Below are positions 1,587-54,105 of a stretch of DNA of 64,000 nucleotides, piece after piece. Origin of the DNA: Escherichia phage vB_EcoP_SU7; sequence record NC_070980.1; one strand, written 5' to 3'. The notes below the pieces were generated by a model that worked only from the letters and a program-made list of their open reading frames with translations, did not search any database and was not told the DNA's origin. The translations under genes were made by a program, and so were the position numbers. Every line of letters starts with the position of its first letter. The stretch's first letter is position 1.

Positions 1587-1616
1587 GTTATAACGATAAT
1601 GTAGAAGGAGTATAAG

Positions 1617-3692: not shown

Positions 3693-3697
3693 AAATA

Positions 3698-3720
3698 GGG
3701 GAGGCTTTGTCCTCCCTTTA
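3698..3720 (+). terminator. Terminator-like hairpin
   Basis: GGGGAGG-CTTTGT-CCTCCC stem-loop after the terminase stop; weak T-run. Confidence 0.35.
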
Positions 3721-3757
3721 GTAGTTCCTTCCAAGCTATCACCGAGGGAGAGATTAG

Positions 3758-8990: not shown

Positions 8991-9054
8991 AAGACCTATA
9001 CAAGCTAGTGTGTAATGTATATTCTTTGTCTACATACAACTAGGAGGACAATCT

Positions 9055-22197: not shown

Positions 22198-23250
22198 ATG
22201 TCTCTTTTCGGTTCTGCTCCTAAATCTAAGACTACGGTAGCTCCGTCTTCTCAGGTTGATGCTCTTCTGAAACAGATTGTAGCAAATGCTCAGGCTATGA
22301 ATCAAAACGATCAAGGTTTTATTGGTCGTAACGTAGCGGGTTTTAATGAAAACCAAACAGCAGCTCTTTCTAATTTAGCAAATTCTAACACACTCAACCA
22401 ACTCAGTCAGATGTACACCCCTAGAACTCAACAAGGGTTGGACCAGATGAATGAGTTGGCTCAGAAATATCAAAACCTAGTTAATAAAGGTGGTATCACT
22501 GCTCAGGTTGTTAATAATTTTAGCTCTGGATTGAATAGCTCTGCTTTAGCTAAGTCTACAGGTAAAGCTGCTGCTAATGTATCTCTTGGTAATGGTTCTG
22601 ATTCAGGTTCTCTTAGACGTGCTGCTGCTCAAGGTGCTGCTCTCTCTTCAGCGAATACAAACCTTTCTCGTTCTATTCAAGGTAAAAACATGGGTGTTAG
22701 CAATCTTATGAATAACAACTCCTATCAGCAAGGTTTGCTCAATGCTCAATCGGGTCTAGCAAATCAGAATTTGAATCTAGGAGCTGCTGGGGTACAAGCT
22801 GGTCAACAGGCAATACAGAATCAGCTCACTGCTGGGAATCTTCAACAACAGCAAGATCAACTCCAAGCTAACAACAATTGGGAGAATGCTATTGGCAATC
22901 AGCAGTATGGTTGGAATCGGCTTAACAACCAGCTTAATGTATTAAACTCAGTAAGCCCAATGGCTGGGTACACCATTACTAACAAAGGTGCTGCCCCTAA
23001 TGTTTCACAACAAATCCTTGGTGCTGGGGTTACTGGTCTTGGTATTGCTGGACGTCTAGGTGCTTTTACCCCTAATCAGCAAACTACTAATGCTTGGAAC
23101 TCATACAATGCTTCTGGAGGTCAAGCTGGGATGGCTGGTCCTATGATTGGTGGCTCAAACCTGTCTCAACAGAATGGTCAGAGCAACTGGTTATCTACCG
23201 CAGGAAGTAATATCTTAGGTGGTGTTCTAGGAGCCTTTGGAGCAAATTAA
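22198..23250 (+). CDS. Gln/Asn/Gly-rich virion protein (paralogue 1)
   Basis: N-terminus MSLFGSAPKSKTT... and Q/N-rich body; paralogous to 23260-24228. Confidence 0.4.
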   Translation: MSLFGSAPKSKTTVAPSSQVDALLKQIVANAQAMNQNDQGFIGRNVAGFNENQTAALSNLANSNTLNQLSQMYTPRTQQGLDQMNELAQKYQNLVNKGGITAQVVNNFSSGLNSSALAKSTGKAAANVSLGNGSDSGSLRRAAAQGAALSSANTNLSRSIQGKNMGVSNLMNNNSYQQGLLNAQSGLANQNLNLGAAGVQAGQQAIQNQLTAGNLQQQQDQLQANNNWENAIGNQQYGWNRLNNQLNVLNSVSPMAGYTITNKGAAPNVSQQILGAGVTGLGIAGRLGAFTPNQQTTNAWNSYNASGGQAGMAGPMIGGSNLSQQNGQSNWLSTAGSNILGGVLGAFGAN

Positions 23251-24242: not shown

Positions 24243-25910
24243 ATGCAACAAACTTCTTATGCGTATCTTCGCAGTCAAGACCCAAGAAATCAGATTTATG
24301 GTGTTAAACAAGGGGCCGCTTCGGCCTCTCCATACATGGCAAGACCTGCTTACCCAGCTGCTGATGTTTCAATGTATAGTCAGAGACCTCCTGCCTCTCC
24401 TGTAGGTTTATCCTCTCTTGTTGCTACTGCTCAAGAAGACCAAGAAGCTATGTTAAATCCGGGATTTAGGCAGCGCCTTATGGAAGCAGAGAATCAAGGG
24501 ACTCCTACAAGCCTTCAGGGTATTGATATTGGCGAACCAGCTCCTGCTATGAATAACCCAGATCTATCCTCTGATGAGGGTCTACAAGCTGCTGGGTTGA
24601 TGCCTAGTGACCCACTTCCTGTTACTCCTCCTCGTAAACCTCTGGAAGAAACAGATAAAGAGTTCTCTCCAGTTCAGGTGGAACAGGCTCAGAATGTTAT
24701 TAACACTTTAGCTAATAGTAATCCAGCTCCTGAAGGTATGGCTGGTGCAACTCGTGCTAAAGACCAAGAACGTATTAATAATGATATTATGGAAGTAGCT
24801 AAAGCTAAAGATCCAGCACAAGCTTGGAATGAGCTTCAGAAGCAACCGTTCTACCAGAAGTCTAGTTTCTATACTGGCTTAATGGGTGTTGGTCTTTCTA
24901 TCATGTCAGGTAAATCCCCTATTGAAGCTTTCCAGATTGGTTCTGGCTTAGCTGCTCAGGATGAAACTAAACAACAACTAGAAGCCAACCGTGATGCTCT
25001 GTTAGAACAAGGCTATTCTCAAGATTCAGTTGCTGCTGCAATTGCTTCGGGAGATCCCTCCCTTCTCAAAATGCGTCAGATTAGTCCTCAGGAGAAGATG
25101 GCTCTTGCTGCTCAGGATGAAGAACGTGCTAATCGTGAGTGGGATAGACGTCAACAGATTCAAGAGAATTCGATGCGGGAACGTGCTGCTGAAACTCGTC
25201 GTGCTGCTGAAGAACGTGCTAATGCTCAGTTCGAGAAACAGAAAGAACTTATTGGATATCGTGATCAAGTTAAAGCAGAGCGTGCAGAGAAGGCTGCTCA
25301 GAGCTTTACTTTCAACCCTAAAGAAGTTCGTCTGGCTCAGAACACAGCAGAAGGTACAGTTGCTAAGCAGTGGGCAGAGAAAGCAGGTCTGTTCAACCAG
25401 TCTCATAAGGACTTGGATTTAGCAGACAAAGCTGTTAAGGATAAGGATTACCAAACTGCTCGTTCTGCTTACATGCAGGCTATTATGAACTCCGCAAGGG
25501 CAGAAATTGGTGCTAACCGTTCTCTCCAAGCTGATGACTTGGCTCACTTTGCAGAAGACCCGTCAATCTTCGTTAAGGTTGGTAATACTTGGTCCCTTAA
25601 AGCAGGCTATCGTCCTTCTGATGCTGCTCTGTCATATGCTCGTAAGCAGGCAACTGTTGGTGCTACTTCCGCTGAGAAAGGTGTGAAGGATGCTAAGAAA
25701 GCAACAATTGAGGCATATATCGGTTCTGGTATGGATAAGAAAAGAGCTACAGCTCTTGTCAACCGTGCTATCCCATCTGCTGGTTTCTATGACCCATTCG
25801 GTACGTTTGAGAGTGAAGCTGAAGCAGCTGTTGGTGGAGATACTACAAATCCTCGCTTAACAGGTGCTCTTTCTTCTTCAGCGGCAGATACGAGTTGGAT
25901 GTTCCAGTAA
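24243..25910 (+). CDS. Internal virion protein (hypothetical)
   Basis: 555-aa ORF in the run of large late genes; coiled-coil/charged central region. Confidence 0.4.
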   Translation: MQQTSYAYLRSQDPRNQIYGVKQGAASASPYMARPAYPAADVSMYSQRPPASPVGLSSLVATAQEDQEAMLNPGFRQRLMEAENQGTPTSLQGIDIGEPAPAMNNPDLSSDEGLQAAGLMPSDPLPVTPPRKPLEETDKEFSPVQVEQAQNVINTLANSNPAPEGMAGATRAKDQERINNDIMEVAKAKDPAQAWNELQKQPFYQKSSFYTGLMGVGLSIMSGKSPIEAFQIGSGLAAQDETKQQLEANRDALLEQGYSQDSVAAAIASGDPSLLKMRQISPQEKMALAAQDEERANREWDRRQQIQENSMRERAAETRRAAEERANAQFEKQKELIGYRDQVKAERAEKAAQSFTFNPKEVRLAQNTAEGTVAKQWAEKAGLFNQSHKDLDLADKAVKDKDYQTARSAYMQAIMNSARAEIGANRSLQADDLAHFAEDPSIFVKVGNTWSLKAGYRPSDAALSYARKQATVGATSAEKGVKDAKKATIEAYIGSGMDKKRATALVNRAIPSAGFYDPFGTFESEAEAAVGGDTTNPRLTGALSSSAADTSWMFQ

Positions 25911-25980
25911 TCTAAGACCTAAGTCCTATCTCTTATAATGTATATAGGAGGTAGGACATTTTTATTTATAAGGAGACGTT

Positions 25981-28900
25981 ATGGCTAATTTAAAATCGTG
26001 GGAAGAAGCTTCCAAAGCTCCTGCGTATCTGAATGCCTCTCCAGAGCAACAGGCTCAAATGAGAGAACAATACAAGGCAGCAGGGGGCACTATTCCTGAG
26101 ACTCAACCACAAGAGCAACCACAACAAGAAGAACGAGGTGTTATTGGGGAGTTTGCTCAAGGTGTGTCTAACGCTCTTCAATCAGGTGGTGCTAACATTG
26201 CAGCTAGTGCTGCTAAAGGTTTAGGTGGGCTGGTAGAGATTGGTGAAAACCTAACTGGTTCGGAAACAAGCTATGGTAAGCGCATTCAAGAGAACTCTAA
26301 GCAATTGCTGGAAGAACGCTTATCCAAGATAGGAGATGGTTTTGGTAAAACAGCTGGTCAGTATGCTGGTGTTGCTGCTGATATTGGTTTGACAGTTGCA
26401 AACCCTGCTGTTGCTGCTGCTGTTATCACAGCTCGTGAAACAGGTCGTGCTTATGCTGATCAAACTCCTAAAGAAGATGAAGATAAGTCAATCTTAGATG
26501 CTGCTCTTGTTGGTGGTGCTAACTACGCTGCTCAGAAGATACTTCCGGGCATGACTGGTACAGCTTCTACTACTCTAGGTCGTGTAGGACAAAGCGTAGC
26601 CTCTAACGCGGTTGCTGGTGCTAAGGGTGGTGCTATTGTTGGTGCTGCTGAAGCTCAGAACAAATATGGAGATGATACTACTCTAGCTAATGTCTTAGAA
26701 GGGGCTATTGAAGAAGGTGCACTCGGTGCCGCTTATGGTGGGGCGATTGGTGGGGTTCATGGGTTAATAAGTCGTCCTAGTCCTCAAGTGTTTGATCGTA
26801 CTCCTGAGCATGTTAAGACTGACATTGCTGCTGAAGATGAGGCTATTCGTAAAGCTGCTAACGCTGATGAACTTCGTGAAGCCTATGCTAAAGCTGAGAA
26901 TGCTAATGCTGCCTCTGCTTTAAACCTTCTGGATGAAAATGGTTTCCGAATCACAGATGCAGTTGCTATGGACTCTCCTGCTGTTCAACGTATATTAAAT
27001 ACAGATCAAAGTCGTGCAGAGAAGGCTGCTACGGTTCAGAAAGATAGTTCTAACGTTCCCGGTCTTAATCCTTTAGCTTCTCCTAAGAAGACTCAAGGTA
27101 AAGCTTTTGCTGACAATGAGTACAACCAGAAACAAGCTGTGGCAATGAAAGATGCAATGGCTGACTACACTAAAGATAACACCAAAGCCCTTACTGATGT
27201 TCTAGACAATCTAGACCGAGAGTTAGTAGCTCTGAGAGCAAGTGGTGATTTTACTGGTAGTGCTATTGACATTAAAAACCGTACTCAAGCTGATCGTGAT
27301 TTTATTGATGCTTATAAAACTTTTTACAGTGAAGCTAATCGTTTCAAAGCTCGTGATGGTGAAGACCTAAACAACTTCATTGATAAAGCTACTCAGTTGC
27401 AGAAGCTCTCTGAAAATGTTTCTCCAGAAATGAAGAAGGCCATTGGTGGATTAAAGAAACTAAAAGGTATGCCTGAAGGTTTTAACCCTATCCAAGATGC
27501 TTTCACTCTGAATAATACAGCTAAGTTCATGAGTAACCAAGACCGTGGTTGGACCTCTCTGACTGATGACGGTTTTCGTGAAGCTCCGGCTCCTGTGTTA
27601 GTTAAGAACCCCCTCGGTGCAGCCAAGTATGTACTTAACCGCTTTACTTCCGATCGTGCTCGTGCTCAACGTGAGAAGCAACAGTCAGCTAATAGTGAAG
27701 CTATCCGCTCTTTGGCTAGGGCTGATTTAGAAGTACAACGAGCTAGGACTCAGGCTGAAGAAGCAAGAGCAAAAATGGAAGAAGAACCAACCACAGAAGA
27801 CATCAAATTCCGTACTCAAAATGATGCACCTTCCGAACCGGTTCGTGAGGAGCCTTCTGCTACTACTGTGACGGAAGAAATTCCTTCCTCTCCAGCTCCA
27901 ACTGAAACACCTCTTACTGCGAGGGATTTGGTTGCTCAAAGACGTGCTCTACAACAAGCAGAACTTAGACGTCAAGAAGCGGAAGCTGCTCAGGCTCAAG
28001 AAAGCACTACTCCAGAACCTGAACCACAGCAAGAAGCATTGACAGCGAGAGAGCTAGTAGCTCAGCGCAGGGCTGTAGCAGAAGCGAAGAAACGTCAAGA
28101 AGCAGAGGAGGCAGAACGTGCCAAAGAAGCTCCTGAGAAGACCGTAGAGGAACCTCAAGAGAAACCTGAGCCATTACCTGCTCGTGCGCCTAAAGCTCCT
28201 GAGAAGGCTCCTGAGCCTGTTAAACCATCACTCGGTGTAGAGCGTCTGGCTTCCATGTCAACTGCTGCCCGTCAGGCAACAAAAGATCGTGCTGACCGAT
28301 TTGCTCGTTCTTTGTATTCGGCTGCTGCTAAAGCTAAAGCTACTGCGGAAAACTTCCTTTCTTATAAAGGAGACCCTAAAGAGCTTATGCGTCGTATCCG
28401 TCAGGAAGACCAAGCAAACAACACACAGCGTCATGAAGAGATGGCTAGAAACCAGCTAGCTTCACAGCAAGGTATTGCTTCTGCTAAGTCTCAACATGTT
28501 CGTTCTTCTTTTGCTGATTGGGTAAAAGAGCGTGGATTGCCTTCTGATATTGCTACTAAGGCTTTACGTGCTGAAGAGAAGGGTTTGGGTGGAAACGTCA
28601 CAAGTCTAGACTCACTGAAACGAAGAGCTGAGCGTTTATATCAGAAACAGAGAGATGATGAATTTGACCGTCTCTATCGAGAGGCTCTGGAAGAGAATAA
28701 AGCTTTTGACAAGAAAGATGCTCCTAAACTGGTAGATCAGAAGAAAGAGCTTCAGGATGAAATTGGTACACTGCTTGATGCAGAACCGTTACGTCCTGCT
28801 CAGAAAGATGCTATGCGTAGGATTATGGAAGACTTCGTGGAGAGTAAGTTTAAATCTTCAGAGAGAGCTGGAAGGGTTGAGGCTTTGGAAGTTGGTCAGA

Positions 28901-30426
28901 TGAAGGATGTGTGGGATGGGTTTATTAATACCTATAACCGAGAAGTTAACATGTTCAACAAGGCTAACAAGAATTCTCAATACGAAGCAGCAGCTAAACA
29001 CTTGCAAGCACGTCAAGAACGTCTTGAGACGCTCCGTAACAGAGCTAAAGCTCGCAGTGATGCTAAGGCAGCCATGGAGGCTGAGAAGCAGTCCTTGGAG
29101 GCTATAGCGGCTCAGAAATCCGAGATGGAGAAGATGTTCAAAGAGTTGCCTGAAAGTGTCAGAGAAGCTCAGGAAGGTCGTACTTTGAAGCAGCTTGCTG
29201 CTCACCACGATAAAAACTCTCCAGTACCACCAGAGCGTTTCCGTAGTATTATTGAACGTATTCACAACGCTGAGAGTGATTACCTCGATCGCAAACGTCG
29301 TTTGACCGAAGCAGAGGAAGATGCTCGTGAGGCTAAGTGGAACAGGATGTATGAACAGGCTGAGGAAATGAACCGTAGGTTTGATATTGATTCTAGAGTG
29401 AAGAGAGATAAGGCTCTGAAAGAAGCTCAGGAACGGGAGAATGACCTAATGGCAGTTCAACGTCAACGTGACGACATTCATAAGCGTTTAGTCAACACTC
29501 TGGAAGAGAAGGGGGTTTCTAGGGAGGATGCTGAAGCGTATGCTGGTTCTTATATGGACAATCGGTATGCTTTGTTAGAGAAACCTATGACTCCAGTGGA
29601 ACATCAGAATGCTCGTGCTCGTATCGAATCTGACGTAGAGAAGTTTGTTAAGAAGTATGAAACAGCTACTCCAATCGAAAGAGAGATTGCTAAGGCAACT
29701 GGTGATGCAGATGGGAAAGCTTCTGACCTTGATGCAGAAACAGCAAAAGCTATCGAAGATGCTCGTAAAGTTGATTCTGATTTTAAGAAACTTTTAGATG
29801 AAGAGAAAGAAATGGAGAAGATTCGTTCGGCTCTACCTGAGGATGAAAGATCTCAGGCTAACTCTGATATTCTTGAAAGTATTAAGAAGCAGGAAGATGA
29901 CTTTGCTAACAAAGCAGAGAAAGCTTTTATTGAAGGGAAAGACTTGCAGGAGTTGGCGAGTGTTGCAGAGGTTCTAGATAGGGTTCATGGTGCAGATAAG
30001 GCTGGTAACAACCGTCGATTTGTGCGTGCTCTACAGACTGCTGCTGAGAACAAGAAACGTTATGGAGATAATCCAGTGGCTTGGTTTAGTGCTGATGATT
30101 ATTCTGCTATTGCGAAACTTGGTGCTGCTTCGGCAGGTGGTAACAAATCTCGAGCACTTGAGAAGATCTTTGGTTCTACAGCAGAACAAGCTAAAGGGAA
30201 ACTTTTAGGGAGGGATGATGTAGCTAAGATTAGACGTGTGATTGAAGCGAATCCTAATGCTAAGATTCCTTCTTACAAGACAACTACTCGACAAGAGTAT
30301 TTACAGTTCTTGGAGAAGTATAATGACGAGGGAGAGTTGAAAGTCAAACGTGGTTCTCTGTCTGACAAGTTGGAGAGAAGTAAGCGTCAAGCTAAACTTC
30401 GTGTTAGAGTTCGAGCTAAGGAGTAA
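25981..30426 (+). CDS. Large internal virion/ejection protein (or tape-measure-like protein)
   Basis: 1481 aa, Ala/Glu/Lys/Arg-rich coiled coil with Gly-rich N-terminal segment; no tail tube/sheath genes recognised, so internal-protein role is favoured. Confidence 0.45.
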   Translation: MANLKSWEEASKAPAYLNASPEQQAQMREQYKAAGGTIPETQPQEQPQQEERGVIGEFAQGVSNALQSGGANIAASAAKGLGGLVEIGENLTGSETSYGKRIQENSKQLLEERLSKIGDGFGKTAGQYAGVAADIGLTVANPAVAAAVITARETGRAYADQTPKEDEDKSILDAALVGGANYAAQKILPGMTGTASTTLGRVGQSVASNAVAGAKGGAIVGAAEAQNKYGDDTTLANVLEGAIEEGALGAAYGGAIGGVHGLISRPSPQVFDRTPEHVKTDIAAEDEAIRKAANADELREAYAKAENANAASALNLLDENGFRITDAVAMDSPAVQRILNTDQSRAEKAATVQKDSSNVPGLNPLASPKKTQGKAFADNEYNQKQAVAMKDAMADYTKDNTKALTDVLDNLDRELVALRASGDFTGSAIDIKNRTQADRDFIDAYKTFYSEANRFKARDGEDLNNFIDKATQLQKLSENVSPEMKKAIGGLKKLKGMPEGFNPIQDAFTLNNTAKFMSNQDRGWTSLTDDGFREAPAPVLVKNPLGAAKYVLNRFTSDRARAQREKQQSANSEAIRSLARADLEVQRARTQAEEARAKMEEEPTTEDIKFRTQNDAPSEPVREEPSATTVTEEIPSSPAPTETPLTARDLVAQRRALQQAELRRQEAEAAQAQESTTPEPEPQQEALTARELVAQRRAVAEAKKRQEAEEAERAKEAPEKTVEEPQEKPEPLPARAPKAPEKAPEPVKPSLGVERLASMSTAARQATKDRADRFARSLYSAAAKAKATAENFLSYKGDPKELMRRIRQEDQANNTQRHEEMARNQLASQQGIASAKSQHVRSSFADWVKERGLPSDIATKALRAEEKGLGGNVTSLDSLKRRAERLYQKQRDDEFDRLYREALEENKAFDKKDAPKLVDQKKELQDEIGTLLDAEPLRPAQKDAMRRIMEDFVESKFKSSERAGRVEALEVGQMKDVWDGFINTYNREVNMFNKANKNSQYEAAAKHLQARQERLETLRNRAKARSDAKAAMEAEKQSLEAIAAQKSEMEKMFKELPESVREAQEGRTLKQLAAHHDKNSPVPPERFRSIIERIHNAESDYLDRKRRLTEAEEDAREAKWNRMYEQAEEMNRRFDIDSRVKRDKALKEAQERENDLMAVQRQRDDIHKRLVNTLEEKGVSREDAEAYAGSYMDNRYALLEKPMTPVEHQNARARIESDVEKFVKKYETATPIEREIAKATGDADGKASDLDAETAKAIEDARKVDSDFKKLLDEEKEMEKIRSALPEDERSQANSDILESIKKQEDDFANKAEKAFIEGKDLQELASVAEVLDRVHGADKAGNNRRFVRALQTAAENKKRYGDNPVAWFSADDYSAIAKLGAASAGGNKSRALEKIFGSTAEQAKGKLLGRDDVAKIRRVIEANPNAKIPSYKTTTRQEYLQFLEKYNDEGELKVKRGSLSDKLERSKRQAKLRVRVRAKE

Positions 30427-31512: not shown

Positions 31513-32355
31513 TTACCAAGTTTTATCTAACCATGACCAATCAAAGAGGTCACCTTCAGCTTGTCCAACGAAGAGCAATCGAGCATTTTCTAACATCTTA
31601 GCTTCTGCTTCTTCCTCGAACCTTTTATAGTATTCCATTCGTATAATATGATAAAGAGTCCACTTATCGAATACCTTCTCAATAAGTTTGATTGCAGCCT
31701 TACTACCAATGCCTTTACGACGCATTACTAGATTGCCACCCCACATCATTTCAACCTTCTCACCACATCCGGGAATGTTATCTGTGCTATCCCCGATCAG
31801 CATTTGGTAGAAGAAGTTCTGCCATGCTACTTCCTCTGATACATAATGAGGGGGTACTTCTTTCTGTCTCTCCCCGCAAGCCCAACGGTAATGCCATCCG
31901 GGGGTGATTAACAAATCTTTATCACGGGTGCAAATGATAGTGTTCTTATCACGTCTCTGTCTTTCAGCTAAGGCATCATCTGCCTCTCTCCCAAAAACTT
32001 CTACGTATTCGTAATTCTCTTTAATGTAGTCACTAACATTTTGCCAGTGGTGAGGTCTTTCTCCCGGTGGTCGATTAGCTTTATAGCCTTGCTGCTTAGC
32101 AATATCAAACCGAAAATTACCACCTTCGCTGAAGTAAAAGATTGTTTTCTCGCAACCAGACCTTGCAATGATTACATCTATTTTATGTTGAAGTCGTTCA
32201 ATCAAGAATCCATAATCAACTGGAACACGACCTGTGTCTAGAAAAGGATGCTCTTGTGTAAGAGCACCGACTTCATATCGCAGAACATCTCCGTCCACAA
32301 TTGCTACTTCAGGATAGATTACATCAGACATAGAGACCTCTCCGTGTCTCTTCAA
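31513..32355 (-). CDS. 5'-3' exonuclease / flap endonuclease (T7 gp6-like)
   Basis: GDSTDNIPGCGEK helix-hairpin-helix/metal-binding signature of the FEN family. Confidence 0.7.
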   Translation of the reverse strand: MKRHGEVSMSDVIYPEVAIVDGDVLRYEVGALTQEHPFLDTGRVPVDYGFLIERLQHKIDVIIARSGCEKTIFYFSEGGNFRFDIAKQQGYKANRPPGERPHHWQNVSDYIKENYEYVEVFGREADDALAERQRRDKNTIICTRDKDLLITPGWHYRWACGERQKEVPPHYVSEEVAWQNFFYQMLIGDSTDNIPGCGEKVEMMWGGNLVMRRKGIGSKAAIKLIEKVFDKWTLYHIIRMEYYKRFEEEAEAKMLENARLLFVGQAEGDLFDWSWLDKTW

Positions 32356-32920
32356 TAATCCACTCTAAATCCTCAACTGCCTCTTCTACAGAACGGTCAT
32401 TAAAGAGGAGGTAGGTTGGTAGGTTTGTTCCTTCAATATAAGAACGGGAGTCCCCTTCAAAGGAGCAGCCATCGCGGAGAACCTGAACCACTCGAACATG
32501 GAAGTGTTTCTCTAGTTCTTCAACTTCTGCTTTAAAACCACCATCAGAGAAGACGATAACATCATTCTGTGATGGGATATGTTGTTGGATACTGCTAACA
32601 GCAAGTTTACCCATGCAGGTCTCACCAAACATAGGCTTCAGGTAATTCTCGCTAGTTGCAATCATCAAGTCTCGAACTGACTTACCGCCCCATTCAGGAC
32701 GGACAAGTTCTTTCCACTCACGGTCGTTGTACAGCTCCATGAACTCGTAAAGAGGTAGACCTAATGCAGCAGCAGCCACTCGATACATAGGCTCCTTAAA
32801 AGCCCTTACATGCGGCCTAAACTCAGTGTTACCAGTGGTCTTCTCTAACCAAGCACTGGCGATTGTATCTTTACCGCAACCCGGAGGTCCATTTAGAATT
32901 ACTACTAATGGTTTACTCAT
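32324..32920 (-). CDS. P-loop nucleotide/nucleic-acid kinase (possibly dNMP kinase)
   Basis: Walker A LNGPPGCGKDT at the N-terminus; substrate not determinable from sequence. Confidence 0.5.
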   Translation of the reverse strand: MSKPLVVILNGPPGCGKDTIASAWLEKTTGNTEFRPHVRAFKEPMYRVAAAALGLPLYEFMELYNDREWKELVRPEWGGKSVRDLMIATSENYLKPMFGETCMGKLAVSSIQQHIPSQNDVIVFSDGGFKAEVEELEKHFHVRVVQVLRDGCSFEGDSRSYIEGTNLPTYLLFNDRSVEEAVEDLEWIIEETRRGLYV

Positions 32921-33570
32921 TATTGAATCATCCCTTGAAGATCTTCTTTATCAAAGTGCTTCTCTACTACCGCTTCATACAGATCACGATTCTCCGAATA
33001 ACGGCGATAGAAGGTTCCGTGTGAAATTCCCAGCTCTTGCTGGATGTGATCATGAGGTATACCGAGGAAGAGCATTGAGAACATACTTGCCATCTTGCGG
33101 TTTTCCATAATATCACTTAGGTCCTGGAAGAAGAAAAAGATTCTAGATTCCAAGAATGGGTCTCCAGTAGAATCATGCTTATCCATAGCAATCTCTAAAG
33201 GACTTTCCCATGAATTCATCTCGGGAGGTCTAAACATATCAGCCTCTGGAATAGAATAGATACGTCTGTCTCCAACTGTCTGACGATTAGAACGAATCGA
33301 CCAGATGATATTCTTCACACGATAAGTCATGTGTTCAATATCTTTTTCATCGGTAAGCAATAGTTCTTCTTGCTTTGCAAATACAAAACGCCAAGAGTTC
33401 AGTAACACTTCCTGAGCAACATCCTCTGCTTCGTGATAATCTTTAATGTCGTACATAAAATACTTATGCACAACTTTCCAATTCTCTCGATAGAATTCAT
33501 CGAAGGTTGGGTAGTACTTAATAGGTATGCCATGAATACGATAGCGTGTGGGTGTTGTCTTTTTCTTCAT
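32920..33570 (-). CDS. Phage-encoded sigma factor (ECF/sigma-70 family-like)
   Basis: Region-2-like [13 protein letters not shown] and C-terminal HTH-like segment [12 protein letters not shown]. Confidence 0.55.
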
Positions 33571-33594
33571 AAGTCATCCTTAACTTACTTTACA

Positions 33595-33819
33595 TTAAAC
33601 TACACAGAATAAATACATTGCTGTTTCAGGGGAAGGTATGTGGTCACTAGGATATCTAACCCTAATCCACTCATCATCTTCTGCTACATAATAAGCCCAA
33701 TAAGACCCATTTTCATTAATAAAGAACTTGAAGGTACAACCAAAGATTTGGTTATTGTGTTCCCATACTGCATGAAACTGAGTAACACCTTCTGGTATTG
33801 TAAGTTCCGCTCTGATCAT
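33595..33819 (-). CDS. Hypothetical protein
   Basis: 74-aa ORF, no motif. Confidence 0.35.
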   Translation of the reverse strand: MIRAELTIPEGVTQFHAVWEHNNQIFGCTFKFFINENGSYWAYYVAEDDEWIRVRYPSDHIPSPETAMYLFCVV

Positions 33820-34082
33820 TGTATTCCTCTCTCCTTTAGAGCTTTAAGCAAACCGTTGTGGTTAGCGGCACAGGTTGTATAAGTGTCCTGATACCACTCG
33901 AGTGTTGTTGCAAGTGCTACTCCCTGTCCACTCTGAAGTAAAGGGAGGTCTACATCACATTCAGCTTTTAGGTTTGTTGGTAAGGGCATTAGCTGCCTGC
34001 TGTTGTCGCTCGTTGAACAAGCCATCAAACTAGAAGCGAGAAAAATCACCAAACAACTCTTTTGCTTTTTCTTTGTAAGCAT
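33816..34082 (-). CDS. Putative o-spanin (outer-membrane lipoprotein)
   Basis: Signal peptide with lipobox-like LMAC, Pro-rich mature region, conserved Cys; start overlaps the 3' end of the HNH gene. Confidence 0.4.
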   Translation of the reverse strand: MLTKKKQKSCLVIFLASSLMACSTSDNSRQLMPLPTNLKAECDVDLPLLQSGQGVALATTLEWYQDTYTTCAANHNGLLKALKERGIQ

Positions 34083-34416
34083 TTTCTGCACCCTCTTGAG
34101 TGCTGTGATAACCAAGCCAAATTACTTTGTTTTGATATCCGATGCGAGCACTCCATTTGTTAATATCCGACCTGTACCCTACACCTTTTATTCCAGTTAA
34201 AGAGTTCTTTTGAACTATTTTGTTGGCATTATTAAGGACAGGTGTTGCTCTTCTTAGATTGCTCCAAGAATTATTAGATTTGTCTAAATCTTTATGGTCT
34301 ATTTGAAAATCAGGAATCTCTCCAGTTTTGATATACCAAGCAATTCTATGAGCTTTGTACTGTTTATATTGATAGGTAATCACTGTATAGCCATCTGTGG
34401 CTTTACAACCTGCCAC
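34030..34416 (-). CDS. HNH-AP2 homing endonuclease
   Basis: HNH_3-type motif HRIAWYIKTGEIPDFQIDHKDLDKSNNSWSNLR plus C-terminal AP2-like DNA-binding domain. Confidence 0.7.
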   Translation of the reverse strand: MAGCKATDGYTVITYQYKQYKAHRIAWYIKTGEIPDFQIDHKDLDKSNNSWSNLRRATPVLNNANKIVQKNSLTGIKGVGYRSDINKWSARIGYQNKVIWLGYHSTQEGAENAYKEKAKELFGDFSRF

Positions 34417-34511
34417 CTTTCCAGCGAATCTTGAATTCCACTGAGCGCTCTTATCCTCAGAATGTTTCCAGTAGAGAAGACCAGAAACCTCATCGTAAGA
34501 TAGATATTTAA

Positions 34512-34853
34512 CTAATTCTTTAATTTCAGTGCCTCCGCTGCTTGTTGCTGTCGTTCATTGAAAAGTCCTACATACTCATCACTAGCACACACATTGTAAA
34601 AAACTGGCTTAGTCTTTTCATAATGCATCTCTTTGTAAATAGTTTCCGTGTTCTTCTTCCAGTTAGATAAACCAGTCAGAACTTTCTGAGCCACTTCATC
34701 AGCAGCCTTAGCTCTCTCAACCTCAATCTCTTGCTGTTTCTTCTCATGGTCAAGAGCATTACTATTACTTCTGTATTGCTCAAACTTGACACCACCAAAG
34801 AAAATAATAGCTGTGAAAATAAGAAAGCCTATATTGTTTTGAAGCTTTTCCAT
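34512..34853 (-). CDS. Putative i-spanin (type II membrane protein with coiled coil)
   Basis: ATG 34853 with GGAG SD; N-terminal TM helix then charged coiled coil; C-terminal about 20 aa duplicated, recoded, at 33961-34020. Confidence 0.4.
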   Translation of the reverse strand: MEKLQNNIGFLIFTAIIFFGGVKFEQYRSNSNALDHEKKQQEIEVERAKAADEVAQKVLTGLSNWKKNTETIYKEMHYEKTKPVFYNVCASDEYVGLFNERQQQAAEALKLKN

Positions 34854-34865
34854 TTTAACTCCAAC

Positions 34866-34888
34866 GAAAAAAGCCACCCGAAGGTGGC
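34866..34888 (-). terminator. Rho-independent terminator (UUCG tetraloop)
   Basis: On the minus strand GCCACC-UUCG-GGUGGC followed by UUUUUU, just downstream of the SSB stop. Confidence 0.75.
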
Positions 34889-34912
34889 TAAGCTATTACA
34901 AGGAGAGATTCA

Positions 34913-35653
34913 TTAGAAAGGGCTGTCATCTTCTTCAAAGGTAGACTGCGGCTCTTCGTTAATAGTAGGGATACTTGGAGTAGCATCTTTCTGTTCAATA
35001 TCAGAAGCTTTAGTAACTTCACGACCAGCCAGAGGGATGTTCTTAGCATCATTAGCTTGGGTCAGAAGATTACGTTGGAATGGGAAGATTGCTTGATAAG
35101 CAGCCAAGTTAGCATCAGTCTCAGCATATGGTTCGAAGAAGATCAACTCACTACGAGGGGCACCTACAGAATCACGATATTTGGTAGGGATTGGAGTGAT
35201 ACTCTTAATGGAGTTTTTCTTCTCACCAGCTTTGTTTACATAGGAATTAACCAGAATGTTAACAGGCTGACCTAGCAGCATATCTTTAAACCAACCCAAA
35301 TCACCTTTCAGTGCTTGAACACTTGGGTCGATCATTTTGATCAGATTCAGAATACCAGAGTTCTTAGCTCGTGGGTTTACGTCGAAAGTTTTAAACTGGC
35401 AAGCAGGACGAGGGTCCAGAGGTTTGCCTTCATTATCAGTCCCTGTTGCATCCACGCCAATCAGTTCAAAAGCCAAGTCCATACGGAAAGCTGGGTTCTT
35501 AGGAGTAACTGCTTTAGTCTTAGGGTCAATCCAAGGGTCACGATTGTGAACACCTAAACCTACAACACGAACAATACGTGCTTCGTACTCACCATCAGGG
35601 ATTACATCGTAGTTGGATTTACGGGATACAGACAGTTCAGGGATCATAGACAT
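34913..35653 (-). CDS. ssDNA-binding protein (T7 gp2.5-like)
   Basis: About 246 aa with acidic C-terminal tail ending ...FEEDDSPF (terminal Phe), sitting with the replication genes. Confidence 0.6.
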   Translation of the reverse strand: MSMIPELSVSRKSNYDVIPDGEYEARIVRVVGLGVHNRDPWIDPKTKAVTPKNPAFRMDLAFELIGVDATGTDNEGKPLDPRPACQFKTFDVNPRAKNSGILNLIKMIDPSVQALKGDLGWFKDMLLGQPVNILVNSYVNKAGEKKNSIKSITPIPTKYRDSVGAPRSELIFFEPYAETDANLAAYQAIFPFQRNLLTQANDAKNIPLAGREVTKASDIEQKDATPSIPTINEEPQSTFEEDDSPF

Positions 35654-36068
35654 ATTAATATTTCCTTATATAAATTTAAGATTGTTGCTCTCTTTGAGCG
35701 GTTTGTATACTATATACATTACACTTATACAGATAAGGTTCTATTATACTATAACCTTTTTGGTAGTAGATAATGACAAGTAGTAATGTATATATGGTAT
35801 AGCTAGTAAAGCTATTGCAGGCTTGTATATTGGGCAATCATTGTAACCCTTGCAAGTACCGAAGGGCAGGAGACACCTGCGAGATAAAAATAGAGAATTA
35901 AGGAAATCCTTGATTTAGGTTGTAGGGACTCCTAGGGACTTTGATTCTCTATTTAAAAGAATATTAATTACTTACTACCTAAATAATTAACTAACTTACT
36001 TAAACCAAACTCAAGAATAATAGATAAAAAGATTATTCCTAAGAAAGCTAAAAAGTAAAGGATATAAG
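35654..36068. promoter_or_regulatory. Long AT-rich intergenic region (candidate promoter/origin region)
   Basis: 415 bp without ORFs upstream of SSB; direct repeat TAGGGACTCC-TAGGGACTTT around 35921-35940; TTGCAA palindrome. Confidence 0.4.
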
Positions 36069-36233
36069 TTACCATTCAAGTAAACCTTTAAAGTTAGTTT
36101 GTTCTACTATCCTCTGATAACGAAGATTAGAATCAGCTTGTTTCTTTAACATCTCATTATATTTATCTCTGATAGGGTCTTTATAAACTACAGGTTCTTT
36201 AAATAACGAGATCTTGTTCTTTTCTTCTTTCAT
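36069..36233 (-). CDS. Hypothetical small protein
   Basis: Track ORF trimmed to internal Met (MKEEKNK...). Confidence 0.3.
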   Translation of the reverse strand: MKEEKNKISLFKEPVVYKDPIRDKYNEMLKKQADSNLRYQRIVEQTNFKGLLEW

Positions 36234-36720
36234 CGAAAACCTTCCTAATCTCTTGCAGAGAAACAGCTTTATAATTAATTTGCTCCATTGATGTACAGAA
36301 ATATCTCCAATCATCAATTACATGATTATGGGTATGAGCATAAATATTAAACTTCCCTCTCATTTCATCAGTGTGAATAGGAATATGAGTTACCCAAAAC
36401 TCTTTATATTTATAATCACCAGAGATTCTACGGAAGACTTTCATCATATCAGGGAGAAGTTCTAACCTGTCATGGTTTCCTAAGACTAGATGCTTCTCTC
36501 CTTTTACTTCAGCGATGATATCAAGGGCATACTTTTCAAACACCCAATCACCGGTAAAGAAAGTTTTATCACGTTTAGTAACATGGTCAAACGCTGCTAA
36601 GATAGCTTTGTCGTGTTCTTCAATACTACTAAACCTCTTCCTAAAGCTACAGATGTTACGATGGCCTAGGTGACCATCACCTGCAAAATAAACTTCAGCC
36701 ATTCTCGTATGTGTCCTCAT
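36199..36720 (-). CDS. Calcineurin-like metallophosphoesterase
   Basis: Motifs GDGHLGH, LVLGNHD and HTHNH in order. Confidence 0.6.
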   Translation of the reverse strand: MRTHTRMAEVYFAGDGHLGHRNICSFRKRFSSIEEHDKAILAAFDHVTKRDKTFFTGDWVFEKYALDIIAEVKGEKHLVLGNHDRLELLPDMMKVFRRISGDYKYKEFWVTHIPIHTDEMRGKFNIYAHTHNHVIDDWRYFCTSMEQINYKAVSLQEIRKVFDERRKEQDLVI

Positions 36721-36845
36721 AATATGAGTAGTTGAAGGATTCAGCTTTCGTTTCAGCCTCCTCCATATCGTCTGTTTCCAGAATCACTCTCCAGCCAGAA
36801 CCGTTAGGATATTCAGCTCCCTCATCTAGCCAGACTTTGTATCGT

Positions 36846-37049
36846 TTAGATTGTGCAACCATCGCAGATGTAATCTCCGCTTAGAGACTCTTGCAAGAGC
36901 CGGGATTGTTCATCTGATACCAACTTGTCAACCTCTTCTTTCAGAGCCATAAGATCAACAAAGGTTAGTAGCTCGTGTCGGTCAGCAATCACTTGGTATT
37001 TGTAGTCATTAATATGTGGTGCGCTTTGTACGACGTAAATATTAGACAT
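36846..37049 (-). CDS. Hypothetical small protein
   Basis: 67-aa ORF in a run of tightly packed small minus-strand ORFs. Confidence 0.3.
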   Translation of the reverse strand: MSNIYVVQSAPHINDYKYQVIADRHELLTFVDLMALKEEVDKLVSDEQSRLLQESLSGDYICDGCTI

Positions 37050-42541: not shown

Positions 42542-42859
42542 TCAACTTGAGCTTAAAGCTCCTTTGCGACCGCCTGCTGATTTTCCAGCACGATCTCCAC
42601 TTTTGCCGCCGTTCGAGCGATTTCGAGAGACTGATTCAACACGTAAGTTACTTGACGCATTAGAACCTCCCGACTTGATTGATCGTTTGTGTCCAACATC
42701 TTTACCTCGGACAGCAGCTTTTCCATCGCGCTTTTCAACGATGCGACGTGCACGGTGGCGCTGAGCATCTCCGCTCTTGCTCCCAATTCCCGTTTCACCG
42801 CGCTTGATCGCAGTCCTTCTTTCTTGAGCATAGTCTCTTTTTCCTACATGATCTGCCAT
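42542..42859 (-). CDS. Hypothetical basic Gly/Ser/Lys/Arg-rich protein
   Basis: 105-aa low-complexity basic ORF; an alternative helical ORF (42553-42831) occupies the same DNA in another frame, so the true frame is unresolved. Confidence 0.3.
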   Translation of the reverse strand: MADHVGKRDYAQERRTAIKRGETGIGSKSGDAQRHRARRIVEKRDGKAAVRGKDVGHKRSIKSGGSNASSNLRVESVSRNRSNGGKSGDRAGKSAGGRKGALSSS

Positions 42860-43188
42860 TAGATTTCTCCTGATTCTCTTTGGTTAAAGGTGTGGATGGC
42901 GTGGCAATTAGCACACAATATCCTGCACTTCCTCATCTCTTCTTTTATTTGAGATAAAGATCTGGTGTGCCCTTTGGAGAGTTCGAATGACTTAGTTAAT
43001 GGATTTAAATGATCAAACTGAAGAGCAGATGCGTGGCCTTTAAAACCACATTCAGAGCACCCGTAGAATGTTTTAACTCTACGAATAAAAGCTAGTTGCC
43101 TAAACCTTCTTCTCTCATTGTCTGCTTTTCTCTTATCTCTATTTCCTGGGTCGGCCCATCTACACGAGTCATTGCAAAACCTCTGCAT
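42859..43188 (-). CDS. HNH endonuclease
   Basis: CSECGF...QFDHLNP...LCANCH motif. Confidence 0.65.
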   Translation of the reverse strand: MQRFCNDSCRWADPGNRDKRKADNERRRFRQLAFIRRVKTFYGCSECGFKGHASALQFDHLNPLTKSFELSKGHTRSLSQIKEEMRKCRILCANCHAIHTFNQRESGEI

Positions 43189-43421
43189 TATATACTTCGT
43201 TACAAATGGTACCTTACAGGTTTCACATTCCTTGTGGTATGTTGCTATTTTGACCCCCTACTCAGTGTAAACAAAACCTTCTTTATCGGCTGACTCTTTT
43301 GCAAAAGTTTTTGCATCTTCAAGAGTGTCAAAAGTCTCAGTGATATAAACTTCTCGAGGCCCGTTTTTGTATACTACAGAAAACTTACCACCCTTAAGTT
43401 CTATTGGTTTCACAACAGTAC

Positions 43422-44162
43422 TCATTGAGACCCCTTCTCCATTGCTTTAACAATCGCCTTACAGAAACCAGAACGAACAATGTCATCTGATTCACCATCT
43501 ACAATCTCAGCGAACTCATACAGATCATGTTCATCAATAAAGTTAGTAGCCCAAGTAAGACCACTCTCACGACCACGCATATCATGCTGGTTAGTATCAC
43601 CCATGCAGAACAGCTGAGAGGTTTCTCCCAATCGGGTCATGATTGAGAAGGCTTCATCCTTAGTTGTGTTCTGGAACTCATCTACGATAACAATAGCATC
43701 ATTGAAAGAACGACCACGGAGATATTCCAGAGGTACGAACTCAATGTTACTGTTACCGAGCTGGCATTCATAGAACCCCTTACCATATCGCTGAGTAATA
43801 ACATCAATGATGGGCATCAGGTAAGGTTCAAACTTCTCACGCATTCCTCCCGGAAGTAACCCAAGAGAGTTGCCCATGCCAACTGAAGGTCGACTCAGAA
43901 TGATCTTCTGAATCTTACCGCTCTTCAGTGCATCAATAACTGTGGAAGTGATTACAAAGGTCTTACCACAGCCCGCAGGAGCGTCTGTGAACACAACTTG
44001 TTTAGTCTTAATAGCATTGAGTAGCTCAGACTGAAACTGGTTCTGAGGGACTACAGGCTTTGCTAAAACCACCTCTTCATACTCTCGCTTACCCTTATGA
44101 GTAACAAGTGCTTCCCGACGAAGGTCTTTCCGTGATTCTTTCCGTGATTGACGACGACTCAT
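43422..44162 (-). CDS. phoH: PhoH-like ATPase
   Basis: Walker A VVFTDAPAGCGKTF and Walker B AIVIVDEFQN. Confidence 0.8.
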   Translation of the reverse strand: MSRRQSRKESRKDLRREALVTHKGKREYEEVVLAKPVVPQNQFQSELLNAIKTKQVVFTDAPAGCGKTFVITSTVIDALKSGKIQKIILSRPSVGMGNSLGLLPGGMREKFEPYLMPIIDVITQRYGKGFYECQLGNSNIEFVPLEYLRGRSFNDAIVIVDEFQNTTKDEAFSIMTRLGETSQLFCMGDTNQHDMRGRESGLTWATNFIDEHDLYEFAEIVDGESDDIVRSGFCKAIVKAMEKGSQ

Positions 44163-47235: not shown

Positions 47236-47811
47236 TTAGTAAGACACATCACCACTAGAGTGGGACATGTTGCTCTTGACGAAGTAACAGAACTTGCCAA
47301 GACCTTCATTAATTTCTTGAAGCATACTCTGGTCCACTGGATAGGTGCACAAGTCTGAATCAAACTCATCCATCTTCTCAATGATACACATAAGAGTCAT
47401 GCACATGTCGGAAAGCATACCGTCCATGTCAAGATCAGCGTTACCTTCTCGGAACCAAGCATGACCTAAATAATTACTAGCAGTAGCATCCACCTTAACA
47501 CAATGAAAGCGCATACGCTCTGCTATTCGGTCGCCTGCCTCACGAGCATAATCTTCTAGTTCATCGAACATACCATGAACACCTTGGAAACCAGCTCCAG
47601 AGACGTTCCAGTGGTAGTTCTTTGCTTTGATGTGTAGAAGTTCAAGGTTAGCTTGCACACCACACAAGATGTGTTCTAAGCTGTTACCGCTAATCAGTTT
47701 ATTCATTCCCTCAAGACGAGAGATAGAAGAGTCAGTAGTAGAGAATGGGTTGCTAGAACCCACTCGTGTTAGTTCTGGTAAGTCGAAGACATTATTATGC
47801 ATTAGGTGCAT
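47236..47811 (-). CDS. Dps-like ferritin (DNA-protection/ferroxidase family)
   Basis: HWNVSGAGFQGVHGMFDELEDYAREAGDRIAERM matches the Dps ferroxidase-centre pattern. Confidence 0.65.
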   Translation of the reverse strand: MHLMHNNVFDLPELTRVGSSNPFSTTDSSISRLEGMNKLISGNSLEHILCGVQANLELLHIKAKNYHWNVSGAGFQGVHGMFDELEDYAREAGDRIAERMRFHCVKVDATASNYLGHAWFREGNADLDMDGMLSDMCMTLMCIIEKMDEFDSDLCTYPVDQSMLQEINEGLGKFCYFVKSNMSHSSGDVSY

Positions 47812-48142
47812 CCCCTTCTAAGTTAGTTGAATTAGCTACATTACGAGCAATGTTATCCATGACCTGCTGTGTAATAACAATGCAATTCTGAGGGTCTACT
47901 GATTTAGAACGCCCCATCTCAGGGTCATAGACTTTGACTCGCTTGGCTGTTGAGCCAGTAACTTGCAACACTTTGAGAAGATAGCCTTGGTTTCCAATAG
48001 ACCATGCAACAACATCACGATTCTTGATATAACGACCAAGCATGTCACGATGATAGAACTGCTGCATAACTTTAGCTTTGCTAATCTCTTCAGATGGCGG
48101 GGCCACTTTACTCAAATCTAACATAACTCTCTCCTGTTTCAT
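47795..48142 (-). CDS. Hypothetical protein
   Basis: 115-aa ORF. Confidence 0.4.
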   Translation of the reverse strand: MKQERVMLDLSKVAPPSEEISKAKVMQQFYHRDMLGRYIKNRDVVAWSIGNQGYLLKVLQVTGSTAKRVKVYDPEMGRSKSVDPQNCIVITQQVMDNIARNVANSTNLEGDAPNA

Positions 48143-48194
48143 ACAATATTCTTATACTGTATATACATTTGAGAGTTATCATATCTACTACCAA

Positions 48195-53680: not shown

Positions 53681-53866
53681 TTATTCTACTTCGAAGTGTT
53701 TGATCACACCAGTCAGTACATCAGATTGGAATGTACCCACTAGCTCTGTACCTCGGAAGAAGTTGACATTTGTTCCAAGTGATTCAAAGCGATCTGCTTG
53801 AATGTCCAGAGATTGAATATTTCCTTCTGCTGACATTGTACGAAACATGATTGTGTATTTATTCAC
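53681..53866 (-). CDS. Hypothetical small protein
   Basis: 61-aa ORF inside the modification-enzyme cluster. Confidence 0.3.
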   Translation of the reverse strand: MNKYTIMFRTMSAEGNIQSLDIQADRFESLGTNVNFFRGTELVGTFQSDVLTGVIKHFEVE

Positions 53867-54105
53867 AGACTTGTTACTCCCTTATCTGCTTGTGCAATTG
53901 CGATGATACGCTCAGCACATTCCATTGAATATTTATCACCTCGTTTGAGGAAGGTGATGATTGCAGAGAACTGATTACCAATCATTCTCTTATTTGTGAT
54001 ACCGAACTCTTCACAGAGTTGGTTGATAGCTTTACGAGAGCCTACAATAAGAGGCTCTTTTTCTTCGGTCATTCCACGGCTGATCAAATCTTCGATAGAC
54101 AACAT
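53863..54105 (-). CDS. Hypothetical small protein
   Basis: 80-aa ORF coupled to neighbours. Confidence 0.3.
   Translation of the reverse strand: MLSIEDLISRGMTEEKEPLIVGSRKAINQLCEEFGITNKRMIGNQFSAIITFLKRGDKYSMECAERIIAIAQADKGVTSL

Follow-up and report, generated by a model that had tools for sequence, protein, structure and literature searches.

A probable phiEco32 gp36-type sigma factor, its gp79 partner and their predicted promoters in Escherichia phage vB_EcoP_SU7

Introduction

A phage-encoded sigma factor is a classic route to the takeover of host transcription. The locus studied here, a 216-residue open reading frame (ORF) in a 64,000-nucleotide stretch of Escherichia phage vB_EcoP_SU7 (NC_070980.1; the whole stretch is called the window below), raises the question of whether it encodes such a factor and, if so, which promoters it would serve. 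An earlier note, based on the letters and an ORF list, had read it as a sigma factor with region-2-like and helix-turn-helix (HTH)-like segments that redirects host RNA polymerase (RNAP) to phage promoters, expected as a recurring motif upstream of late genes.

The closest experimental precedent is phiEco32, in which sigma70-RNAP serves the early genes and gp36-RNAP the middle and late genes (PMC12276001; PMC8948821). There, gp36 and gp79 co-purify with RNAP from infected cells, gp36 directs in vitro transcription from middle and late promoters, and gp79 inhibits both the sigma70 and the sigmaS holoenzymes, shutting off sigma70 transcription, stabilises the phage sigma and stimulates the gp36 holoenzyme 3- to 4-fold (PMC12276001; PMC8948821). 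Six gp36-dependent promoters have been mapped, 5' of genes 6, 13, 26, 40, 58 and 68 (PMC8948821 Table S3), with the consensus tAATGTAtA and a start 6-8 bp downstream (PMC12276001; PMC8948821). In a 3.4 A open complex on one of these, P68, gp36 is arranged on RNAP as sigma2-linker-sigma4: the N-terminal domain (1-103) takes the place of sigma2 on the clamp helices, the linker runs through the active-site cleft as sigma3.2 does, and the sigma4-like C-terminal domain (138-214), onto which the N-terminal helix of gp79 docks, grips the flap-tip helix and contacts -37G and -34A, mutations at which contacts abolish phiEco32 transcription (PMC12276001). Its authors describe gp36 as a distant, structurally deviant sigma homologue (PMC12276001). 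In the sources consulted, core RNAP binding and promoter-specific initiation are demonstrated only for phiEco32 gp36 (PMC12276001; Pavlova 2012, as reported in PMC8948821). With its temporal classes, mapped promoters and 2025 cryo-EM open complex, the gp36/gp79 pair is among the best understood of its kind.

Results

The ORF, its setting and its relatives

The ORF was recovered exactly as first described, on the minus strand and from an ATG (Table 1), with the Shine-Dalgarno sequence AAGGA 7 nt 5' of the start and a stop codon sharing 1 nt with the beginning of the next ORF, which is dNMP-kinase-like. GC skew and ORF layout divide the window into two convergent arms, with structural genes on the plus strand to ~30.4 kb and replication, middle and early genes on the minus strand beyond, and the earlier assignment of the ORF to the replication/early-middle arm was right: an exonuclease, a dNMP kinase and a DNA polymerase lie alongside. 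The gene order around the locus is syntenic with that of phiEco32, Bas86, ECBP2, EK010, KBNP1711 and LAMP. By megablast of 32000-35000, all 97 phage records matched were phiEco32-group (Gordonclarkvirinae) Escherichia/Shigella podophages, PAS59 (97.3% DNA identity) and Bas86 (96.4%) being the closest.

A tblastn search with the ORF likewise returned 97 records, each covering at least 80% of the protein. The annotated Bas86 'RNA polymerase sigma factor' matches it at 100% identity, the ECBP2 homologue at 97.7% and the product of phiEco32 gene 36 at 79.5%; in several GenBank relatives the homologue still carries the label 'hypothetical protein'. Residues 1-215 match PHROG 1740 'RNA polymerase sigma factor' (E=9.1e-43), of which gp36-type family every computationally testable defining feature was found, and align with residues 1-213 of PDB 9m7y_F, 'RNA polymerase ECF sigma factor' (E=2.8e-117, improving to E=8e-143 with a profile of six orthologues). 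Chain F of 9m7y is phiEco32 gp36 itself, as resolved by Xu et al. 2025 in their cryo-EM structure of the open complex (PMC12276001). Global alignment with gp36 (216 vs 214 aa) gave 79.9% identity over 214 aligned residues; the N-terminal domain is the best conserved (84.5%), followed by the inter-domain linker (82.4%), where there is a 2-aa insertion, and the C-terminal domain (72.7%). By homology, the window protein would consist of a sigma2-like domain at ~1-103, a linker, and a sigma4-like domain at ~140-216. A single-sequence AlphaFold2 model of the protein was too poor for use (mean pLDDT 40.8); by homology, its fold would be that of the 80%-identical gp36, whose solved structure shows sigma2-like and sigma4-like folds with some deviations (PMC12276001). 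Judged by these relationships, the ORF almost certainly encodes the phage's own promoter-specificity (sigma) subunit, orthologous to phiEco32 gp36.

Table 1 Features of the window at and related to the sigma factor locus
Feature	Coordinates	Strand	Element	Remarks
Phage sigma factor gene, probable gp36 orthologue	32920..33570	-		216 aa, ATG start; matches PHROG 1740, PDB 9m7y_F, Bas86
gp79 homologue	53863..54105	-		80 aa; tblastn 76% identity, E=2.5e-40
P6 counterpart (late)	1597..1605	+	TAATGTAGA	11 nt 5' of ATG at 1617; predicted start ~1612
P13 counterpart (late)	9013..9021	+	TAATGTATA	AAGACCTA at -37..-30 (8991-8998); predicted start ~9028
P26 counterpart (late)	25936..25944	+	TAATGTATA	AAGACCTA at -37..-30 (25914-25921); predicted start ~25951
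P40 counterpart (middle)	35713..35721	-	TAATGTATA	59 nt 5' of gene 40 homologue (34913-35653); predicted start ~35706
P68 counterpart (middle)	48162..48192	-	AAATGTATA (48162-48170), GGTAGTAGATA (48182-48192)	GGTAGTAGATA at -37..-27; predicted start ~48155
Candidate seventh gp36-type promoter	35762..35792	+	GGTAGTAGATA (35762-35772), TAATGTATA (35784-35792)	Predicted start ~35799
Near-consensus -10 look-alike	33589..33597	-	TAATGTAAA	18 nt 5' of sigma ATG; lacks T-38 and A-34
Terminator-like hairpin	34872..34889	-	AGCCACC-TTCG-GGTGGCT + T-run	After gene 40 homologue, 5' of sigma operon segment

Generic sigma-70 and HTH models

The region-2-like and C-terminal HTH-like segments noticed earlier do exist, in a weak and sub-threshold form: Pfam Sigma70_r2 (PF04542) matches residues 26-61 (E=0.011; 15.9 bits vs a cutoff of 24), DUF1492 residues 148-191 (E=0.028) and the TetR_N HTH residues 176-201 (E=0.065), and Pfam gave no match of the protein to Sigma70_r4 or r4_2 even at E<=10. 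The sigma-70/ECF models of NCBIfam (best E=2.4e-5) all score far under their cutoffs, the best region-2 match reaching 24.3 bits vs 202, and TIGR02937, across residues 23-191, 18.6 bits vs 42.9; cellular ECF sigmas were non-significant in the PDB search with the six-orthologue profile (E=0.5-1.3). Region 2 and region 4 models both being sub-threshold, the protein falls outside the curated sigma-70 ECF/group 4 models by sequence. The surroundings do not have the usual look of an ECF locus either: the neighbours are the dNMP kinase and a 74-aa ORF without Pfam matches, neither of them an adjacent anti-sigma, and the -10 look-alike 5' of the sigma gene, where an autoregulated promoter would be looked for, has no -35 signature. 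Since the generic models stay below threshold, the assignment of sigma function rests on orthology to the experimentally proven gp36.

Functional residues and the gp79 partner

The residues by which gp36 engages RNAP and DNA are retained almost without exception. All five acidic residues facing the clamp helices (D44, E47, E49, D50, E54) are identical in the window protein, as are all eight fork and -10 contact residues (E79, H80, Y83, R84, W90, S91, S94, N95) and the -35 contact residues Y186/R187 of gp36, which correspond to Y188/R189 here, so that 15 of 15 DNA and clamp contact residues agree with gp36; they are also invariant in six orthologues. In the groove that receives the flap-tip helix, identity extends to four of five residues, the exception being M138>L, and in the gp79-binding groove (F146, M164, L167, I169) to all four.

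A homologue of gp79 is encoded on the minus strand (Table 1). Its gp36-contacting positions read L6>I, L9, V10>I and M14, and the residues that contact gp36, beta' and the clamp are identical or conservatively changed (the changes include L29>I and W36>F), which holds also for the beta'-pocket residues and the two salt-bridge arginines. The view that a phage sigma redirects host RNAP to phage promoters is supported by gp36 orthology, by the contact residues and by the promoter sites described below, with the amendment that the sigma does not act alone but requires gp79, another phage protein, alongside it.

Promoters in the window

Five of the six published phiEco32 promoters (P6, P13, P26, P40 and P68) were found at syntenic sites with near-identical flanks, and their intergenic placement was checked against the ORF lists. 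The P6 counterpart has the same element and context as phiEco32 1677-1685 and falls in the gap between ORFs 895-1551 and 1617-2084; the counterpart of P13 is flanked by ORFs 8338-8952 and 9055-9807, that of P26 by ORFs 24243-25910 and 25981-30426, and that of P68 by ORFs 48195-48401 and 47795-48142. The P40 counterpart is invariant in seven phages. A counterpart of P58 was not found in the window, where the phiEco32 P58 flank fails to align and the sole remnant 5' of the gene 58 homologue (42542-42859) is a degenerate AATGTG. That homologue is preceded by a 109-aa Cys/His-rich ORF (42859-43188), at which place Bas86 has an annotated HNH endonuclease; P58 is thus missing at what appears from the sequence to be the insertion of a homing-endonuclease-like ORF.

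How far the motif stands out depends on how it is written. The exact TAATGTATA occurs four times in the window vs 0.53 expected, and the published degenerate consensus [TA]AATGTA[TG]A eight times vs 3.2 expected (at least eight in 7 of 200 simulations), six of the eight sites being intergenic. The hexamer AATGTA is at chance in the window (41 vs 41.8 expected) and the 9-mer with one mismatch near chance (22 vs 18.4 expected). Raw counts are thus uninformative, and the promoter signal is significant solely when position is considered together with the consensus in its exact or published degenerate form; the position of the sites is a stronger argument for promoters than their number. The motif that the earlier note had expected upstream of late genes but could not define is, then, tAATGTAtA, as seen at P6, P13 and P26; its restriction to late genes did not hold, as it also marks the middle promoters P40 and P68. 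Orthology, residue conservation, the partner gene, and the presence and placement of the promoters are all demonstrated for the window.

The -35 region and look-alike sites

Anchoring on the -10 element, we aligned the -35 regions of 13 sites from the window and phiEco32, which represent seven distinct promoters, orthologous pairs not being independent. Position -34 is A in 13/13 and -36 a purine in 13/13, with a purine at -37 in 12/13 and a T at -38 in 12/13; the invariant -34A and the purines at -36/-37 agree with the published contacts to -37G and -34A (PMC12276001). Two longer blocks recur, AAGACCTA at -37..-30 of P13 and P26, both late promoters, and GGTAGTAGATA at -37..-27 in P68 and in a plus-strand site at 35762-35792; the exact 11-mer GGTAGTAGATA has two copies in the window and two in phiEco32, always at equal spacing. 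The pattern TRRNA-N19-AATGTA yields seven sites vs 0.89 expected, an enrichment that is partly circular because the pattern was drawn from these same promoters, and it still serves to discriminate promoters from look-alikes. Three minus-strand -10 look-alikes, at 33589-33597, 50621-50629 and 59044-59052, lack the -35 signature and are therefore probably not promoters. The first of these, TAATGTAAA, lies just 5' of the sigma gene and was considered as its autoregulatory promoter; we rejected it, as it has no -38/-34 signature and is kept only in the closest relatives, Bas86 and ECBP2, whose near-identity makes the conservation uninformative.

Alternative readings

Two other readings of the locus deserve to be weighed against this evidence. 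The ORF might encode an ordinary HTH regulator, TetR-like or DUF1492-like, which binds DNA alone, without taking the place of sigma in the holoenzyme. The weak C-terminal matches to TetR_N and DUF1492, PDB TetR chains at E=0.18-1.2 and the failure of every sigma-70 model to pass its curated cutoff would fit such a protein; its TetR and DUF1492 matches are, however, all non-significant, as against a full-length match to gp36, a component of an RNAP open complex, at E=2.8e-117, and an autonomous regulator sits badly with the conserved residues for binding the clamp helices and the flap-tip helix. We consider this reading very unlikely indeed.

A gp36 orthologue whose specificity or role has drifted, with a regulon or timing that differs from that of phiEco32, for instance through positive autoregulation from TAATGTAAA, is less far-fetched and still improbable. 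It could draw on the lower identity of the C-terminal domain (72.7% vs 84.5% in the N-terminal domain), the absence of P58 from the window, the different gene upstream of sigma, the terminator-like hairpin upstream (34872-34889), and the near-consensus -10 that the window, Bas86 and ECBP2 carry directly 5' of the sigma gene. Yet every base-contacting residue is identical to that of gp36 and the same elements are retained at five promoters, and the TAATGTAAA site, limited to near-identical relatives, lacks T-38 and A-34, in a system where mutations at the -37G/-34A contacts kill phiEco32 transcription (PMC12276001).

Expression of the sigma gene

Gene 37 of phiEco32 and SU10, which lies just 5' of the sigma gene, is predicted to contain a sigma70-type promoter (PMC8948821, PMC4281155). 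In the window, as in Bas86 and ECBP2, this macro-domain gene is replaced by the unrelated 74-aa ORF, so that the window lacks the sigma70 promoter proposed for phiEco32. A search for another sigma70-type promoter between the hairpin and the gene gave just weak 9/12 matches at chance frequency, and the software-annotated promoter of the relative 4E8 is degraded in the window; both candidates were rejected. The simplest guess would be that sigma mRNA arises by read-through from upstream early or middle transcription.

Discussion

A proposed course of infection

The biochemistry and timing of the system are carried over from the phiEco32 orthologue, and on that analogy we infer the following course. 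The first genes to be transcribed would be the early ones, read by host sigma70-RNAP from the distal end of the minus-strand arm, and the sigma gene and the gp79 homologue would then be expressed as middle genes. The gp79 homologue would bind the RNAP clamp, and its N-terminal helix, by entering the RNA exit channel, would displace sigma70 region 4 and thereby turn host and early transcription off. On binding core RNAP, the phage sigma would place its N-terminal domain against the clamp helices, and its C-terminal domain would engage the flap-tip helix and be stabilised at this point by the N-terminal helix of gp79. Its N-terminal domain would read AATGTA, centred at -11.5, with E79/H80 directed at -11G and S91, S94 and N95 at -13, -12 and -14, respectively, and W90 and Y83 would stack at the fork; the C-terminal domain would read the -35 region through R189 at -37G and Y188 at the T opposite -34A. 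The expected outcome is the firing of the middle-gene promoters P40 and P68 and of the late structural-gene promoters P6, P13 and P26.

Comparison with known systems

With phiEco32 gp36 the window protein shares its length class, ~80% end-to-end identity, the position in the middle arm, the contact residues, the gp79 partner and tAATGTAtA at five sites; it differs from it in the 2-aa linker insertion and a C-terminal domain that is 73% identical, and the window differs in the 74-aa ORF in place of the macro-domain gene 37 and in that no P58 was found. From the Suseptimavirus-type phages there is essentially no difference: the sigmas of ECBP2, Bas86, Bas87 and EK010, annotated as 'RNA polymerase sigma factor' or 'ECF sigma factor', lie at the same locus and are 93-100% identical, and the window is another isolate of this lineage, its DNA around the locus being ~96-97% identical to that of PAS59 and Bas86.

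The likeness to bacterial ECF (group 4) sigmas such as M. tuberculosis SigL (6dv9_F) and SigK (4nqw_A) is one of architecture, namely sigma2-linker-sigma4 in ~200 aa without regions 1.1 and 3, together with a weak region-2 similarity at residues 22-63 and, for gp36, the binding of clamp helices and flap-tip helix by its two domains in the manner of sigma2/sigma4 (PMC12276001). Against this stand a sequence similarity under every curated threshold and the structural deviations of gp36, whose N-terminal helix alpha1 is rotated by ~70 degrees and whose C-terminal domain combines a shortened recognition-region helix with a flap-tip helix pose rotated by ~100 degrees (PMC12276001). Also unlike the bacterial factors, the main promoter determinant is one extended -10-like element, and there is no anti-sigma partner, gp79 being a co-activator.

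The sigma gp47 of Salmonella phage 7-11 (7-11/GAP52 subgroup) has a comparable genome position and comparable late promoter positions (PMC8948821). It is, however, only ~15% identical to gp36 and uses a bipartite promoter, GTAAtg-N16-aCTA, and phage 7-11 is without a gp79 homologue, host shut-off and a middle class (PMC8948821). The window is clearly a member of the phiEco32 subgroup. An analogy has also been drawn with AsiA/MotA of T4, in which a small protein disables sigma70 region 4 and a second one gives new promoter specificity (PMC12276001), with the difference that T4 retains and remodels host sigma70 and here the phage sigma replaces it.

The system is already known, through biochemistry and cryo-EM in phiEco32 and through the sigma annotation in the closest relatives; as gp36 has thus been proven, the initial interpretation was right and the finding is not new. 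An orthologue in another phiEco32-like genome brings no new biology, and its value lies in a correct annotation and a ready promoter map.

A divergent candidate promoter by P40

The plus-strand site at 35762-35792 faces away from P40 and is invariant in seven phages. Its -35 block and spacing are exactly those of P68, with the full -38 to -34 signature, and its -10 element forms a perfect 12-nt inverted repeat with that of P40, 60 nt apart. It lies in the 545-bp gap (35654-36198) that separates the gene 40 homologue from the next ORF upstream, and falls together with P40 in a conserved block of ~330 bp within that gap. The block is near-invariant in seven phages from several subfamily lineages and 88-90% identical between the window and phiEco32, as against 74.5% in the sigma gene and 74-83% in neighbouring regions. 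The site is absent from the six published promoters and from the phiEco32-group literature surveyed, whose scope excludes Pavlova 2012.

From the predicted start, RNAP would be sent antisense to the arm across ~170 nt of invariant sequence, which contains several hairpins, among them one with 14-bp arms (35888-35954) that carries in its loop a tandem TAGGGACT repeat with 10-bp spacing. No ATG-initiated ORF follows the candidate promoter, just TTG-start ORFs of 22 and 28 aa, and Rfam has no match in the conserved intergenic block. Folding z-scores of the block are ~-2 on both strands, with one compensatory pair and no useful covariation, and hence provide no structural evidence for an RNA.

It is conceivable, though we would rather bet against it, that the site is a seventh gp36 promoter giving rise to a ~170-nt transcript that is non-coding or related to replication or regulation, and that the promoters fall into subclasses by their -35 block. 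If so, the subclasses AAGACCTA (late P13 and P26) and GGTAGTAGATA (P68 and 35762-35792) could underlie middle and late timing. The divergent promoter with its conserved non-coding block may be the only new element of the window, and this oppositely oriented consensus promoter is the only part that might merit experiment. On the minus strand, the 14-bp-arm hairpin followed by TTTTTAT could, from its sequence, act as a terminator ahead of P40.

Promoters of the gp36 type and the conserved intergenic block

The intergenic block that contains P40, one of the published promoters of the phiEco32 sigma factor gp36, is 88-90% identical between the window and phiEco32, which exceeds the identity of its flanking genes and compares with 74.5% for the sigma gene. 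Inside this block, and oriented oppositely to P40, lies a candidate promoter with a perfect gp36-type sequence that is absent from the published list of six. The plus-strand site or the block around it could be the source of a non-coding or antisense transcript of ~170 nt, or could act as a replication or regulatory element.

Two distinct -35-region blocks, each at fixed spacing, are found among the gp36-type promoters, with an A at -34 common to P13, P26, P68 and the plus-strand site. The difference between the blocks could underlie middle versus late timing.

Features of the window discussed in the text (positions in phiEco32 refer to its sequence L001)
Feature	Position	Strand	Location or remark	phiEco32
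P6 element to ATG	1597-1617	+		
-35 block AAGACCTA	8991-8998; 25914-25921		late promoters P13; P26	
Bipartite match TGGAA...N19...TAATGTATT	22912-22941	+	within gene 23-type DNA-ejection protein gene	23005-23034
-10 look-alike TAATGTAAA	33589-33597	-	18 nt upstream of sigma ATG	
74-aa ORF	33595-33819	-	replaces gene 37	34833-35273
128-aa ORF	34030-34416	-	between spanin-like ORF and sigma gene	
Conserved intergenic block	35654-36198 (core 35700-35965)			36573-36887
-35 block GGTAGTAGATA	48182-48192; 35762-35772		middle promoter P68; plus-strand site	
Candidate promoter with perfect gp36-type sequence, GGTAGTAGATA + TAATGTATA	35762-35772 + 35784-35792	+	inside conserved block	
Hairpin, 14-nt arms AAATAGAGAATTAA / TTGATTCTCTATTT	35888-35954			
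Tandem TAGGGACT repeat	35923-35940		hairpin loop	
109-aa Cys/His-rich ORF	42859-43188	-	directly upstream of gene 58 homologue	
55-aa ORF	43258-43425		replaces gene 59 region	

The bipartite match in the DNA-ejection protein gene is kept in phiEco32 and has T at -7, where A is otherwise invariant. A weak internal promoter is one possibility; the other is simply that its coding role has preserved it. The -10 look-alike upstream of the sigma gene overlaps the stop codon of the preceding 74-aa ORF. It is probably not an autoregulatory promoter, since it lacks the -38/-34 signature and is shared by the window with Bas86 and ECBP2 only.

At P6, just 11 nt separate the promoter element from the ATG, as in phiEco32, and the predicted leader is therefore ~5 nt long; the transcript would begin inside the AGGAG Shine-Dalgarno or downstream of it. 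Judged by this predicted start, the gene 6 mRNA made from P6 would be nearly leaderless. The hairpin may be a terminator of the upstream operon on the minus strand, because TTTTTAT follows it when read in that direction, while the tandem repeat in its loop, spaced at 10 bp, looks like a protein-binding site.

Gene replacements in the window and apparent mosaicism of a related sigma gene

Whereas a macro-domain (Appr-1-p processing) gene, gene 37, precedes the sigma gene in phiEco32, the window carries in its place a 74-aa ORF that is unrelated to it and gives no hit in Pfam, and the sigma70 promoter predicted in phiEco32 gene 37 is therefore missing here. The gene 59 region has also been replaced, and the phiEco32 promoter P58 has no counterpart in the window upstream of the gene 58 homologue. 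At the position of the 109-aa ORF, Bas86 has an annotated HNH endonuclease, and an HNH endonuclease annotated in Bas86 also corresponds in position to the 128-aa ORF. The region of the latter looks like a mobile insertion, as it is uncovered in several relatives (UKE3, NC-B and IME267, with 83% coverage in two pieces).

The sigma factor of EK010 (3501-4151 of its sequence, L005) appears to be a mosaic: in the sigma alignment its N-terminal half is of the phiEco32 type and its C-terminal half of the window/ECBP2 type, which suggests recombination within the gene near the linker.
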